Below, piece after piece: positions 26,411 through 52,193 of a DNA stretch of 64,000 nucleotides (the first letter of the stretch is position 1; each line of letters starts with the position of its first letter). The notes under the pieces are model-generated. The model worked only from the letters and a program-made list of their open reading frames with translations, did no database searches and was not told the origin of the DNA. The translations under genes were made by a program, and so were the position numbers. The DNA is from Candidatus Woesearchaeota archaeon (GTDB lineage: Archaea > Nanobdellota > Nanobdellia > SCGC-AAA011-G17 > PNOQ01), in assembly GCA_043812195.1 (NCBI GenBank), contig JBDRML010000001.1:1-64000 (forward strand), given 5' to 3'.

Positions 26411-26433
26411 AGCGAGAGGTGTCTCGCACTCTT
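26411..26433 (+). repeat. Hairpin element copy 1
   Basis: agcgagaggtgtctcgcactctt. Confidence 0.9.
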
Positions 26434-26490
26434 ATTTAACAAGTTTTTTAAATTTCATTTTTTTACTTAAAAAAGGTAATACTTTAGAAA

Positions 26491-27957
26491 ATGAACAGAA
26501 TATCAAAAAAAAGCAAAATAACTCTTGTAGAGTTAGCTCCAACTCAATATGGAGTTTTAAATGGAGAACCCTCTTTTGATGTTTCTAGTCTAACTAGTTT
26601 TCCTGCTAGGGCTATACATCATTTAGAAGCAATTTTAACAGAAGCAGGATATGAAGATGTTCAATCAATAAATCAAAAGTGTCATGGAAGAGATGGGAGA
26701 TTAAGTGTAGACAATCAAAAAAGAATATACAGCTCAGACATCCTATTAACATCTTCAATAACAAGAACATCCCCTCAATCAATTATGCTAGGAAGAACCT
26801 ACAAATCTCTCAATCCAAATGGAATAGTAATAGCAGGTGGTCAAGATCCAACATTTAGATATAAAGAATGGCTAGATCAAATAGGGGCAGATATCATTGT
26901 GGTTGGTGAAGGCGAAAAAACTCTTGAATTATTAATGGAAAGATTAGAAAAACAACCAGATTATTTAGATGATATAGATGGTATAGCATTTAGAAATGGA
27001 GACACAATAAAAGTTACAAATACAAGAAAACGTTTAACATCAGAAGAGTTAGGTCAACTCCCACATCCCTGTTATGATGAAATTACAAGAAAATTAACTA
27101 CACCCGCCATTGAGACTAGCAGGGGATGCCCATGGGGCTGCGATTTTTGTAGCGAAACGGAATTTAATGGAGGAAAATATAGAACAAAACCAAATAAATA
27201 CACACTCAAAGACATGGTAACAGCAAAATCCTGGAAAAAACCACCATTTTATGTAGACAATAATTTTGCAGCCTCTCAAAAAAGAACAATGGATTTATGC
27301 AACCAAATTTATGAAGCAGGTCTAAGTATCCCAAAAAGTTCTGTGCAAGTTACAGTAAAAGCAGCCCAAAATCCAGAACTGTTAAAATCATTAAAAAGAG
27401 CAGGCATAAATTTAGTAAATATAGGAATAGAATCAATTATAGATGAAAGTTTAAAAGATCTTGGGAAATCATTTAATGCAGAACAGAACAAAGAAGCAGT
27501 TAAAATATTCAAAGAAGCAGGTTTTTGGGTTCATGGAATGATGATGCCAGGCGGTGAAGGAGATACAATTGAAACATTAAAAGAAACTTCAGAATGGATA
27601 AATAAAAACTTAGATAGTGTACAACTATTTCCTCCAATACCTGGACCAGGAACAAGACTAAGGAAAAGAATGGAATCAGAAGGAAGAATTCTTTCAGATG
27701 ATTGGTCTTTATATGATGGGCAGCATGTTTTAATAAGACCAAAACACATCACACCATACAAACTCCAAACCACAGTATTTGATATGTACAAATCATTTTA
27801 TACATTTAAAAATAATTTAAGAAGATTAAGAAATTCTCCACAAAGAAATTTTTCTTGGCAAATACTTCTATACACTAATCTCTTAAATGGTATAACAAAA
27901 GTTACAAATGCACCACAAACAAGAGATCATTTAGAATTTTTAAAATCTATCAATTGA
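26491..27957 (+). CDS. B12-binding domain radical SAM protein
   Basis: IAGGQDPT, VVGEGE, TSRGCPWGCDFC, GIES. Confidence 0.9.
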   Translation: MNRISKKSKITLVELAPTQYGVLNGEPSFDVSSLTSFPARAIHHLEAILTEAGYEDVQSINQKCHGRDGRLSVDNQKRIYSSDILLTSSITRTSPQSIMLGRTYKSLNPNGIVIAGGQDPTFRYKEWLDQIGADIIVVGEGEKTLELLMERLEKQPDYLDDIDGIAFRNGDTIKVTNTRKRLTSEELGQLPHPCYDEITRKLTTPAIETSRGCPWGCDFCSETEFNGGKYRTKPNKYTLKDMVTAKSWKKPPFYVDNNFAASQKRTMDLCNQIYEAGLSIPKSSVQVTVKAAQNPELLKSLKRAGINLVNIGIESIIDESLKDLGKSFNAEQNKEAVKIFKEAGFWVHGMMMPGGEGDTIETLKETSEWINKNLDSVQLFPPIPGPGTRLRKRMESEGRILSDDWSLYDGQHVLIRPKHITPYKLQTTVFDMYKSFYTFKNNLRRLRNSPQRNFSWQILLYTNLLNGITKVTNAPQTRDHLEFLKSIN

Positions 27958-27965
27958 TTTTATTT

Positions 27966-27988
27966 AGCGAGAAGTTTCTCGCGCTCTC
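27966..27988 (+). repeat. Hairpin element copy 2
   Basis: agcgagaagtttctcgcgctctc. Confidence 0.92.
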
Positions 27989-28029
27989 CCCTTAGGAAGT
28001 TTTATATATAAAATTATTTAAATAAAAAT

Positions 28030-29022
28030 ATGAAAAAAGTAGCCATATTACTGATTATATGCATCTTAATGGTTTCTCCAATTGTTCACGCTCAAACCTA
28101 TTCTAATTTCGAAGGCTTTGTAGATAATGTAAAGCTGTTCTTTGCCTCTGGAGATAAAAAAGTAAGTCTTTCTTCAGAAATAAGGGAGAAAGAAGTTAAT
28201 TCTGCAATTGAAAGCACAAAAAAAGGAGATATTAATAAAGCTAACCAAAATCTTGAAAGAGCAAGAGAAAAACTCCAATTTATACAAGAAAAAGTTTCTT
28301 TAAATACTGCTGATGAAATAAAAGAGAGTGTTAATAATGTTGTAGAAAATATAGTAGTAGAAGAAAATCTTCCAAACACTTTTGATGTGTATGTTATGGA
28401 AGAGCAAAAAACACAATTAATCGCAGAACTTGTTATAGTGGTTGAAGGTAAAGAAGGGCAAGATAAAGTAAGAGTAGTAGAGGGAGCATTAGGAGAAATT
28501 AATAATGAGATCAAAGGTTGGGTAGTTGAAAACACTGTTGCAGAAGGTGAAAATTCTATGGATAATGGTTTAACCTGGGAAATAAAAACAGATATAGATT
28601 CTGGGAATTACGGTGGAGATGATGGTTTAACCACTATAGTAAAAGAATATATTGAAGGAGATGGAACATTAAAAATTGAAGATGTTAAAAAAGTTATTGA
28701 AAAAGGAAAAAATCAGATTGATAGTGCACCTATGACAAAAGACAATGAAGACGTAACCCCTGCTCCAAATATAGTTGATGATGATATGTGTGAAGAAGGA
28801 GAAGAAAATTGTAATAATGATGACATGGCTCCAGGACCACAAGGAATTGTAGGACAAGTTGATGATAGTAATTCAAATGAAGAAAATTCTGAAAATTCTG
28901 GTAGTGAAAATAATGATGGAGAAGATTCTGGAGGAGATAGCGGAGAAGAGATAACAGGAGAGATAGTAAGAACTCAAAAAACAAGTTTTTTAGAACAAAT
29001 TTTCAATTTCTTTTTTAGTTAA
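28030..29022 (+). CDS. Secreted acidic protein
   Basis: Signal peptide; E/D/N/S-rich C-terminal half. Confidence 0.7.
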   Translation: MKKVAILLIICILMVSPIVHAQTYSNFEGFVDNVKLFFASGDKKVSLSSEIREKEVNSAIESTKKGDINKANQNLERAREKLQFIQEKVSLNTADEIKESVNNVVENIVVEENLPNTFDVYVMEEQKTQLIAELVIVVEGKEGQDKVRVVEGALGEINNEIKGWVVENTVAEGENSMDNGLTWEIKTDIDSGNYGGDDGLTTIVKEYIEGDGTLKIEDVKKVIEKGKNQIDSAPMTKDNEDVTPAPNIVDDDMCEEGEENCNNDDMAPGPQGIVGQVDDSNSNEENSENSGSENNDGEDSGGDSGEEITGEIVRTQKTSFLEQIFNFFFS

Positions 29023-29053
29023 GTTTAAAAACAAGTAATTCTAAAATTAATTC

Positions 29054-30052
29054 ATGAAAAAAAGTGTGATATTAATTATTCTATCAATTTTAATTAGTGG
29101 TTGTGCCACAGAAGAACCAAGAGAAACTGAGATTTTCTGCCCAGATTATGATGGAGATGAAGAAGTATGTTTGTCTCACTCAGAATGTGAATGGGATACA
29201 GAAGAAAACAATTGTGATTCAATTGGAAACATAAATGAAAATGATGAAAATGAAAATGATAATGATGAAAATGATGATGGGGGAATTAATCAAGAATTAG
29301 AAAATATTGTTGTTCCAGATAATCCTTCAAATACTCTCTGCAAAAAAATACCTTTTTCAGATGGACTAACTTATAGTTCAAGATATCATTGTCTTGCTCT
29401 TGTAAATAATGATGAAAAATTTTGTGAAGGGGTTGATACAACAAATGATAAATATATTTGTTTAGCTCATGCAAATGCAGATTCTTCTTATTGTGAAAAA
29501 ATTGAAGATCAGGATGCAAACCATGTTGGTGATGATGCAAACCATGTTTGTTATTTTATGCTCGCTGTATCAAGTGAAAATGCTGATTTTTGTAATGACA
29601 TTGATTATTTAGATACAGCACAAGAAAACAAAGAGGAAAAAGAAAAATGTTATTTTAGTTTTATGAGTAATTTATATCAGTGGGACAAATCTGATGAAAT
29701 AACTACAGAAATTTGTGGTCATCTGGAAGATGAGATGGAAAAAACTTGTCTTGCATTAAAAGCAAGAGATATTTCTATGTGTGAAAGTAATCCTAACTGT
29801 TTGAGTTTTTTTGAACAGCCATTATCTTTTTGCGATGAACGTCCAGATTTTGTTTCTTGTATGAAAGATAGAGCAAAAACAGATAAGAATGTTTCAATCT
29901 GTGAACTGCTTTCTCAACCAGATAGGGATGTTTGTGTTGGGGTTTATTGTACCCATACAGAGCTTAATGCAAACATTTGTGATACAATTGAAAATGTTCA
30001 AAAAAGGCAAGAATTTTATGTAGAACTTGCAATGAATTTAGCTAATAAATAA
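29054..30052 (+). CDS. Cys-repeat lipoprotein
   Basis: Lipobox ISGC; repeated C..I.....C units. Confidence 0.75.
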   Translation: MKKSVILIILSILISGCATEEPRETEIFCPDYDGDEEVCLSHSECEWDTEENNCDSIGNINENDENENDNDENDDGGINQELENIVVPDNPSNTLCKKIPFSDGLTYSSRYHCLALVNNDEKFCEGVDTTNDKYICLAHANADSSYCEKIEDQDANHVGDDANHVCYFMLAVSSENADFCNDIDYLDTAQENKEEKEKCYFSFMSNLYQWDKSDEITTEICGHLEDEMEKTCLALKARDISMCESNPNCLSFFEQPLSFCDERPDFVSCMKDRAKTDKNVSICELLSQPDRDVCVGVYCTHTELNANICDTIENVQKRQEFYVELAMNLANK

Positions 30053-51734: not shown

Positions 51735-51764
51735 GATTTTGAATTCTATTGGGGTAGTTAAGTA
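51698..51764 (+). repeat. Displaced copy of helicase 3' end (~67 bp)
   Basis: aaaaagatcatataaacattttaagtccagatattaggattttgaattctattggggtagttaagta. Confidence 0.9.
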
Positions 51765-51787
51765 AGCGAGAAGTGTCTCTCACTTTC
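51765..51787 (+). repeat. Hairpin element copy 17 (degenerate)
   Basis: agcgagaagtgtctctcactttc then ttttaga. Confidence 0.8.
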
Positions 51788-51835
51788 TTTTAGAAAAATA
51801 TTTATACACCCCAAAATAATCAAAATTATAAAAAA

Positions 51836-51958
51836 ATGGCAAACATATGTGAAAAATGCGGAAAATTAGTAAATGAATGGACTAAAATAACGCATGATGA
51901 AGATGGAGAAAACAAATACTTTTGTAATGGAGACTGCTTTAGTGAATACATTAATTAA
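51836..51958 (+). CDS. 40-aa TRASH-like Zn-binding peptide (not in ORF track)
   Basis: MANICEKCGKLVNEWTKITHDEDGENKYFCNGDCFSEYIN. Confidence 0.6.
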   Translation: MANICEKCGKLVNEWTKITHDEDGENKYFCNGDCFSEYIN

Positions 51959-51976
51959 AAAAGGAGGCAATTTAAA

Positions 51977-52129
51977 ATGGATGAAATAAAACACATATAT
52001 TCGATGGTTATGCAAAGAGATGACAAATCTCTAAAAAACTACTTAAAAAATAAAAGAAATCAGGAAAAAGCAAGAGCTAGAAAAATAAGAATAGTAGCAA
52101 ATGCAGTTCATAGGATTTATACAGCTTAA
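51977..52129 (+). CDS. 50-aa basic hypothetical protein (not in ORF track)
   Basis: AGGAGG RBS; MDEIKHIYSMVMQRDDKSLKNYLKNKRNQEKARARKIRIVANAVHRIYTA. Confidence 0.5.
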   Translation: MDEIKHIYSMVMQRDDKSLKNYLKNKRNQEKARARKIRIVANAVHRIYTA

Positions 52130-52170
52130 ATAATAAATAATTAGAAGTATATTAAATTTTATGTTTTTGT

Positions 52171-52193
52171 AGCGAGAGGTTTTTCGCGCTCTC
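52171..52193 (+). repeat. Hairpin element copy 18 (last in window)
   Basis: agcgagaggtttttcgcgctctc then ttttagata. Confidence 0.9.

Follow-up and report, generated by a model that had tools for sequence, protein, structure and literature searches.

We describe here a short repeat that divides an accessory gene island into modules in the 64,000-nucleotide stretch of archaeal DNA under study (positions 1 to 64,000 of its contig, hereafter the window), and we suggest that it is the junction site at which those modules are exchanged. Eighteen copies, all on the + strand, separate 17 gene modules between 26,411 and 52,193 (array A), three more form a second group (array B) just past the window on the same contig, and arrangements seen in other strains depart from this genome at the element. 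The reading that we prefer, to which we give a probability of about one half, is that the modules are mobile and that their junction sites are recombined by an enzyme encoded elsewhere in the genome, possibly a tyrosine recombinase acting on a core made of two 11-bp arms and a 6-bp centre (11-6-11).

The window is AT-rich (26-33% G+C) and its proteins are archaeal in type, among them a TATA-binding protein (TBP), a RadA/Rad51-type protein, and an intein-bearing DinG/XPD-type helicase. The assembly to which it belongs, 90% complete, totals 938 kb over 45 contigs; the small genome and its composition are compatible with a DPANN-type archaeon, which we presume the host to be. A scan of the window with AGCGAGA-N4-TCTCGCGCTCTC at no more than 2 mismatches found 12 matches, all on the + strand, as against none in 100 shuffles, and the 16-nt dyad alone gave 15 matches where 0.16 would be expected. 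Extended to the whole genome at no more than 3 mismatches, the scan finds 19 copies: 15 in array A, three in array B (contig positions 66918, 68644, and 69730, all on the minus strand), and a solitary one on another contig, at C34:5193. A whole-genome profile search with nhmmer recovers the same 19 copies at E <= 7e-8. An indel variant at 46,526 has an E of 0.031 in that search, and all remaining matches lie above 3, including two collapsed copies at 42,403 and 48,654 that retain just the outer CTCTC part. Counted together, 21 of the 22 copies fall within 43 kb of one contig (26.4-69.8 kb), less than 5% of the assembly, the copy at C34:5193 being the sole exception; neither the genome-wide scan nor the profile search places one at 1-26.4 kb or 52.2-64 kb of the window.

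The orientation of the copies takes no account of gene direction, for all 18 in array A lie on the + strand despite four minus-strand gene blocks inside it; by our own arithmetic, the chance of 18 copies sharing one orientation is about 8e-6 (two-sided). An initial annotation of this DNA had drawn attention to the repeat, and most of its description is borne out: copies on a single strand and at gene boundaries, units of 0.3-4.3 kb, a 6-bp stem with a 4-nt loop, an AGTA lead-in and a following T-run plus AG (both present as a weaker consensus), and no copy in the core genes or the defence island. Its count of about 16 full-length and 2 collapsed copies was right in its total of 18 and wrong in its division, the proper split being 15 full copies, 1 indel variant, and 2 collapsed copies, and the random dispersal over the genome that it had set against its own proposal is not seen. 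The features of array A are these:

26411..52193, + strand: array A, 18 co-oriented copies delimiting 17 gene modules of 0.3-4.3 kb
26411..26433, + strand: element copy, 2 mismatches; flanked by the divergent start of RadA and by a B12-radical SAM gene
27966..27988, + strand: element copy, exact
32295..32317, + strand: element copy, exact; left flank differs in variant contig L044
32610..32632, + strand: element copy, 1 mismatch; overlaps the stop of a phosphoribosyltransferase fragment
32678..33192, + strand: MazE/ParE toxin-antitoxin module, bracketed by elements 32610 and 33257
33257..33279, + strand: element copy, 3 mismatches
34247..37432, + strand: intein-bearing accessory helicase, DinG-like, from whose 3′ end the repeated tails derive
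37441..37463, + strand: element copy, exact, 8 nt past the helicase stop; end of an insertion sequence (IS) 6 nt after the element in L041
38662..38728, + strand: helicase 3′ tail fragment fused to the next element
38729..38751, + strand: element copy, 2 mismatches
39233..39255, + strand: element copy, exact; overlaps the stop of the upstream open reading frame (ORF)
41665..41687, + strand: element copy, exact; overlaps the upstream ORF stop
42403..42425, + strand: collapsed copy, inner arms lost; between convergent genes
42998..43020, + strand: element copy, exact; helicase tail joined to this copy in L040 and in a contig of run X1
43068..43337, + strand: single-repeat (half) TBP ORF, truncated before the next element
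43365..43422, + strand: helicase 3′ tail fragment, the shortest
43423..43445, + strand: element copy, 3 mismatches
45518..45840, + strand: helicase 3′ fragment, 96% identical to 37109-37408 over 300 aligned nt, fused to the element
45841..45863, + strand: element copy, exact; between convergent genes
46526..46549, + strand: indel variant, of the 7-bp stem and 3-nt centre type found in the sister genus
48654..48676, + strand: collapsed copy, outer palindrome only
50800..50822, + strand: element copy, exact; between divergent genes
51698..51764, + strand: helicase 3′ tail fragment
51765..51787, + strand: element copy, 3 mismatches
52171..52193, + strand: last array-A copy, 1 mismatch; abuts the 3′ end of a minus-strand gene

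Each copy either lies between ORFs or overlaps a stop codon. To the right of the element a + strand gene starts after 15 of the 18 array-A copies and a minus-strand gene ends after 3; to the left, a + strand ORF or gene fragment leads up to 13 copies, and at the other 5 a minus-strand gene starts next to the element. Five copies stand between divergent gene starts and three between convergent gene ends. Where a same-strand gene lies downstream, a TATA-like octamer (at least 7 of 8 matches) is often found 8-20 nt past the core, with the start codon some 27-40 nt beyond it, as at 27966, 32610, 41665, 42998, 51765, and array-B copy 66918; at C34:5193 the box is present and no ATG was found after the element. 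Several units carry genes on both strands. The element thus stands at divergent promoters, at convergent ends, and in gaps where a stop codon precedes a promoter, and no terminator or promoter element would cover all three settings.

Conservation is sharp across the 23-nt core, weaker in the five bases to its left (RAGTA) and in the T-run plus AG to its right, and gone beyond these. Many upstream ORFs end in the element because the left-edge consensus, TWRAGTA(AG), holds stop codons in two frames when read through as TWRAGTAAG. As DNA, the stem and loop fold at -6.3 kcal/mol (z about -2.8), a good stability for so short a stem. In none of the 6 stem pairs have both sides changed, and variant copies break pairs without compensation, so the copies speak neither for nor against a folded form. 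The same letters can be parsed as a loose left arm of 11 bp, a variable 6-bp centre (A-RGTD-T), and a strict right arm of 11 bp (CTCGCGCTCTC). The copy at 69,730 exists side by side in three alleles that differ in centre and stem, within flanks that are about 99% identical. A search of Rfam 15 gave no covariance-model match at E <= 0.1 between 24 and 64 kb.

Other strains supply the evidence that the DNA around the element changes. Exact-pattern scans covered species-representative genomes, a viral collection, and a metagenome collection. The viral collection held no match, and the species representatives gave 10 single chance matches, 8 in named bacteria or bacterial metagenome-assembled genomes (MAGs) and 2 in MAGs of uncultured bacteria. 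The metagenomes yielded 31 stretches, of which 12 have a G+C content below 36% and 11 match this genome at 97-100%. Six contigs (L046, L027, L044, L043, L036, and L026) confirm the arrangement of this genome across elements. In 4 of the 12 low-GC contigs (L020, L022, L040, and L044), collinearity breaks within about 5 nt of an element, so that strain differences in gene content do begin there, as had been anticipated. L044 has different DNA to the left of 32,295, starting 5 nt before the core; the genes that follow the C34 copy on its right are different in L022, as are the units to the right of 66,918 in L020, which include two more elements, one with a tail of the helicase gene described below; and in L040 the end of the 45.4-45.8 kb unit is joined through such a tail to the element and unit of 42,998. 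A further break, in L041, lies 6 nt after the element, at 37,463. It was considered as a cassette swap and rejected, being the end of a DDE-transposase IS inserted 6 nt past the element. In this genome that IS is found at C40:7966-8543, adjoining TFB and ribosomal protein genes; its end in the variant strain occupies L041:1-49.

Only once does collinearity break at a distance from an element, through an intein-like indel in L046. At 24533-25761 of the window, a 1.2-kb stretch with a LAGLIDADG ORF interrupts a RadA/Rad51-type gene region (ORFs 24543-25694 and 25769-26368, minus strand); L046 has just 320 nt in its place, a presence/absence polymorphism of an intein-like or homing-endonuclease insert. 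At C34:5339-5386, a doubled motif of about 20 nt (AAAGTGTTCACTGYCAATG) precedes an AAA_14/DUF4143 gene, and the doubled motif recurs in the variant strain (L022, reverse complement, 130-215) next to different DNA.

L040 and a contig from run X1 both contain the junction that would be expected from a circle or a tandem duplication of 42998-45863. The run X1 contig, which goes back from 51763 to 42997 (side 60), agrees with L040; the remaining joints from this search, which was run on short, low-depth Logan contigs, had a shorter side of only 21-28 nt and were left out as unreliable. Loose contig ends occur near 38775 and 50785 (among the loose ends listed, 24 of 393). The first 381 nt of L040 are identical to this genome, and the final 122 nt of the fragment, among them the tail and the element centre, differ at 7 positions; L040 thus includes a crossover inside the repeated helicase tail.

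That tail derives from a DinG-like helicase gene (34247-37432) which resembles the type IV CRISPR-associated DinG and carries an intein with a LAGLIDADG domain. Its C-terminal 310 residues have no match in 24 genomes of the same family, and the helicase is an accessory gene. Four further copies of the gene's final 58-323 nt exist, each of them fused to an element, at 38,662, 43,365, 45,518, and 51,698. Three tails, two of them here and one in L020, start at the identical base, and the DNA to the left of them is unrelated. The presence of a tail with its element in array B of L020 indicates that tail-bearing ends move between arrays. Gene fragments account for 7 of the 22 left neighbours (the helicase four times, RadC twice, and a phosphoribosyltransferase piece once), and no truncated gene was seen on the right side of the element. 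In array B, two RadC 5′ fragments of 166 and 82 residues end at elements, with the full RadC gene 2.4 kb away; within this region (C1 63774-69001, locus L057) the fragments are 84-87% alike mutually and about 74-78% alike to the full gene.

The modules themselves hold a varied cargo: the MazE/ParE pair bracketed exactly by two elements, lipoprotein-like and membrane ORFs, a Schlafen/AlbA-HTH protein, a NosD-like beta-helix protein, a YdjM-like protein, and three radical-SAM enzymes, two of which have SPASM domains and stand beside small Cys-rich ORFs. Each of these radical SAM/SPASM genes (39379-40955 and 46619-48033) is followed by a small Cys- and Asp-rich ORF, of 73 and 54 residues, and the pairs look like peptide-maturation units carried as modules. 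The single-repeat TBP, an 89-residue ORF (43068-43337) amounting to half of a normal archaeal TBP, has a unit of its own and stands beside one of the helicase tails. Helix-turn-helix (HTH) regulators are encoded within the array and adjoining it, and nine array ORFs without an assignment have no match in PADLOC or PHROGs. From about 28 kb to 64 kb the GC skew has strongly positive values (0.1-0.3), as against values near zero or negative at 1-26 kb; genes are mostly on the + strand in both regions, so that the strand composition of the island differs from that of the core.

A search of 40 relatives at 2 mismatches or fewer gave no copy. A covariance model run against 151 genomes of the order gave convincing matches only in two sister-genus genomes; its two weakest matches (G080 and G118) were rejected, as they bear no resemblance to the element. 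A looser inner-arm pattern gives element-type matches in 5 of the 25 family genomes. The sister genus has a variant with a 7-bp stem and a 3-nt centre, the type of copy 46,526, which is present in 6 of the 25, this one counted, with 1-3 copies in each, and whose exact pattern is met in 4 of 240 genomes of the order; one copy is a perfect 13-bp palindrome, two stand at contig ends, and two abut gene 3′ ends on what would be the promoter side. The neighbours in the sister genus (GmrSD, HNH, DUF2779, Fic, and, in relative G012, a RadC fragment fused to a methylase fragment) lie in flanks that differ between species. The relatives' copies give the element a depth beyond this genome, a patchy spread, and a link with variable genes of the defence type. 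The DUF2779 nuclease was considered as a partner of the element, its copies beside the element in the two genera being 67% identical, but their positions with respect to the element differ and the nuclease beside array B is unrelated, and the lead was dropped.

Searches of the genome for recombinases of the tyrosine, serine, Y1, IS110, and Y2 families found four tyrosine recombinases, one serine recombinase, and one IS200/IS605 Y1 transposase, none of them linked to the arrays; the Y2 search gave no match, but neither did its control. One tyrosine recombinase is a XerA-like ORF on C36 (201.4 bits as against a model cut-off of 220), and the other three are paralogues. A tyrosine recombinase of 208 residues that lacks the N-terminal domain is encoded at 9418-10044, with a tRNA-Lys gene (13679-13755) following after 3.6 kb and the array 17 kb downstream. 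Contig L042 (2340-6431) supplies about 4 kb that bridge the contig end to C31 and are missing from the assembly; its ORFs encode an HTH-nucleotidyltransferase, TspO, a pyrimidine-dimer glycosylase, and a ParE-like protein, and no recombinase was found in the stretch.

From these observations we infer that the element is a recombination site. Each module would be a self-contained expression unit with its own promoter, and recombination at the element would account for the gain, loss, duplication, and reordering of modules; the left edge of the element would supply stop codons to incoming reading frames. Because no recombinase gene is linked to the arrays, we suppose that site-specific recombination would be carried out by an enzyme encoded elsewhere. 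As to its class, we can only speculate: a tyrosine recombinase acting in trans on double-stranded DNA would be our preferred guess, because the 11-6-11 parsing has the geometry of dif and pdif sites, where the enzyme is likewise unlinked.

The pdif modules of Acinetobacter plasmids are among the known systems that come closest. These small modules are bounded by short sites of Xer type, in which one arm is well kept and the other looser, they hold accessory genes including toxin-antitoxin pairs, they depend on a chromosomal, unlinked recombinase and are shuffled between replicons, and an IS family is reported to target positions a few bp from the site, much as the IS end in L041 lies 6 nt past the element. 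The pdif system differs in that its sites flank a module in inverse orientation, whereas here all sites are direct, the host is archaeal, the sequence is unrelated, and any role for Xer is hypothetical. The repeated helicase tails resemble what is seen in islands of stacked integrative elements such as the tycheposons of Prochlorococcus, in which repeated 3′ fragments of the target gene mark successive insertions. Tycheposons use a tRNA target and carry their own integrase. Here, in contrast, the target would be the end of a protein gene, that of the DinG-like helicase, plus a palindrome, and there is no element-borne integrase.

Several observations weigh against this proposal. No recombinase is tied to the site through linkage or co-occurrence, and the five element-bearing relatives have no tyrosine recombinase on the contig that carries the element. 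The left arm mirrors the right arm in 0 of 22 copies, the centre of the sister-genus form is one base longer (11-7-11, or 13-3-13), and the 11-6-11 division is our own parsing of the letters, as distinct from a measured footprint. We saw no clean excision product or empty site, and with 7 differences in 503 nt, the L040 junction represents another strain or copy and not a circle of this genotype. The copy on C34 has no partner element beyond its variable gene. The patchy presence in the family, which argues against the element being the host's dif site, counts here as well. The helicase tails measure 66-345 nt and are 88-96% identical, so ordinary homologous recombination could lie behind some of the rearrangements, and the variant metagenome contigs were chosen for containing the element and possibly come from few samples.

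Homologous recombination between the repeats and tails surely contributes, and it forms part of the main rival to our proposal. On that account, the element would be a punctuation signal (a terminator, insulator, or transcription-factor site) common to one mobile gene pool, and strain differences would arise by homologous recombination between identical stretches of 23-35 nt and the longer helicase tails, with no dedicated recombinase. The T-run after most copies, the TATA-like box 8-20 nt past the core before same-strand genes, the resemblance of a dyad with a variable centre to a dimeric DNA-binding site, the HTH regulators encoded in and beside the array, and the L040 crossover inside a repeated tail are all consistent with it. 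We nevertheless think it unlikely. The five copies at divergent starts have nothing to terminate, and are out of place for a hairpin-plus-T-run terminator, which belongs at the 3′ end of a same-strand gene; the three at convergent ends have nothing to activate. The host is not enriched in hairpin terminators (6 found as against 6.5 expected in the core region, 1-20 kb), the orientation of the element is independent of gene direction, two sister-genus copies abut gene 3′ ends on the supposed promoter side, and 23 nearly perfect nucleotides beside freely diverging flanks go beyond the usual transcription-factor site. Homologous recombination, for its part, leaves the single polarity and the presence of the element at every boundary unexplained.

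The remaining explanations seem to us less probable still. A selfish miniature palindrome of the repetitive extragenic palindromic (REP) type, copied by an HUH/Y1 or other nuclease, would make the rearrangements a side effect. REP sequences and the mosaic elements built from them (BIMEs) are small GC-rich intergenic palindromes with a conserved four-base lead-in, associated with RAYT transposases; the present element is likewise a small GC-rich palindrome in AT-rich intergenic DNA, most copies have a GTAG or GTAA before the stem that resembles the lead-in tetranucleotide, and the genome has one Y1 transposase gene. Yet the element is confined to one island, with none in the roughly 870 kb outside it apart from C34:5193; its copies are direct within the arrays and form no inverted doublets, no target-site duplication is visible, and no RAYT-like gene is flanked by repeats. 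The only Y1 gene, on C23, stands beside a 425-aa ORF, and its IS200/IS605-type element has a different palindrome (C23:44851 and C24:24100). We consider this origin improbable, and to much the same degree we doubt that the repeat is a chromosomal Xer/dif dimer-resolution site on which dif-integrating elements have piled up in tandem. Integrative mobile elements exploiting Xer (IMEXs) do form direct arrays of hybrid sites with one good arm, and the atypical dif sites of Legionella and Coxiella are non-coding, about 29 bp long, with long uninterrupted inverted repeats and varying neighbours (PMC9765430). The element would fit this if it is read as a site of 28-29 bp with arms of 11-13 bp; a XerA-like gene, scoring just below the model cut-off, is present and unlinked, and the sister genus has few copies per genome, which include a perfect palindrome and are non-coding with changing neighbours, as described for archaeal and Legionella dif sites. 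Unlike a dif site, however, of which one conserved copy per chromosome is expected across relatives, it turned up in no more than 6 of 25 genomes of the family and 4 of 240 of the order, though many of these are more than 90% complete, and this patchiness makes identity with the host dif unlikely; no copy in this genome has two intact arms, and the modules are far smaller than the phage-like IMEXs. A true integron, in which an IntI-like integrase would act on folded single-stranded hairpins and capture cassettes at attI, is the least probable of all and is already contradicted on its defining features, although co-oriented repeats, small units, and a toxin-antitoxin unit do resemble chromosomal integrons, and archaeal MAGs are reported to contain canonical attC integrons, in most cases with no integrase linked to them (PMC9668308). 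The attC core pair (RYYYAAC and GTTRRRY, 40-130 nt apart, on either strand) spans 0 of the 18 element positions and 0 of 2000 random positions; a 6-bp stem is too short for paired R and L boxes and shows no covariation; the best of the four tyrosine recombinases scores 168.2 bits against an IntI cut-off of 265, and none adjoins either array. Nor are the units promoterless single-gene cassettes, for in most a TATA-like box and an ATG follow the element. The attC arrays without an integrase (CALINs) reported in archaeal MAGs (PMC9668308) have sites with R and L core boxes, whereas the site here is 23-28 nt long with no such boxes, and its modules, each with a promoter of its own, can contain more than one gene and genes on either strand, and are accompanied by no IntI-type enzyme. 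The system resembles an integron or a set of pdif modules in outcome and stands outside the integron family. Of the gene-shuffling platform put forward in the initial annotation, then, island restriction, polarity, and strain breaks survive; the absence of attC cores, as had been noted there, holds for all 18 sites, while the integron-like mechanism falls, and the single-stranded hairpin substrate has no sign in its favour, the repeat reading equally well as a double-stranded 11-6-11 core.

Some further observations concern elements elsewhere in the genome. A search for a host dif site found a sole perfect palindrome with 11-bp arms and a centre of 6-8 nt, at C24:24100-24127; it was rejected as an IS200/IS605-type hairpin, since the palindrome recurs next to the Y1 gene (C23:44851) and is absent from 24 relatives. 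That gene (C23:44499-44878, IS200/IS605-type) has the perfect 11-6-11 palindrome, unrelated to the element, just downstream. A reverse transcriptase at C29:89357-90013 (in a 418-residue frame), far from the arrays, could belong to a diversity-generating retroelement or a group II intron.

In small-genome archaea, defence and cell-surface variation are thought to depend on gene flux. Our literature searches found no short-site module system described in archaea apart from canonical attC integrons, and a 2021 review of archaeal tyrosine recombinases makes no mention of IMEX, dif-like sites, or DPANN. If the element is a recombination site, it offers a compact, testable substrate of about 28 bp together with a natural population that contains several arrangements at once, and it could lead to an unlinked recombinase of new specificity; it would also be helpful for the assembly of MAGs, because relatives' contigs end at the element. 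More tentatively, and at odds somewhat longer than even, we may be looking at an undescribed archaeal system of module capture and shuffling, built on an asymmetric 28-bp site with a strict arm, a loose arm that serves as a stop trap, and a variable 6-bp centre, and served by a recombinase in trans. Were this so, modules for defence, surface proteins, and peptide maturation, each bearing its own promoter, would be stacked in polar arrays, and a small-genome archaeon, presumably of the DPANN group, would possess a third type of cassette platform beside integrons and pdif modules.

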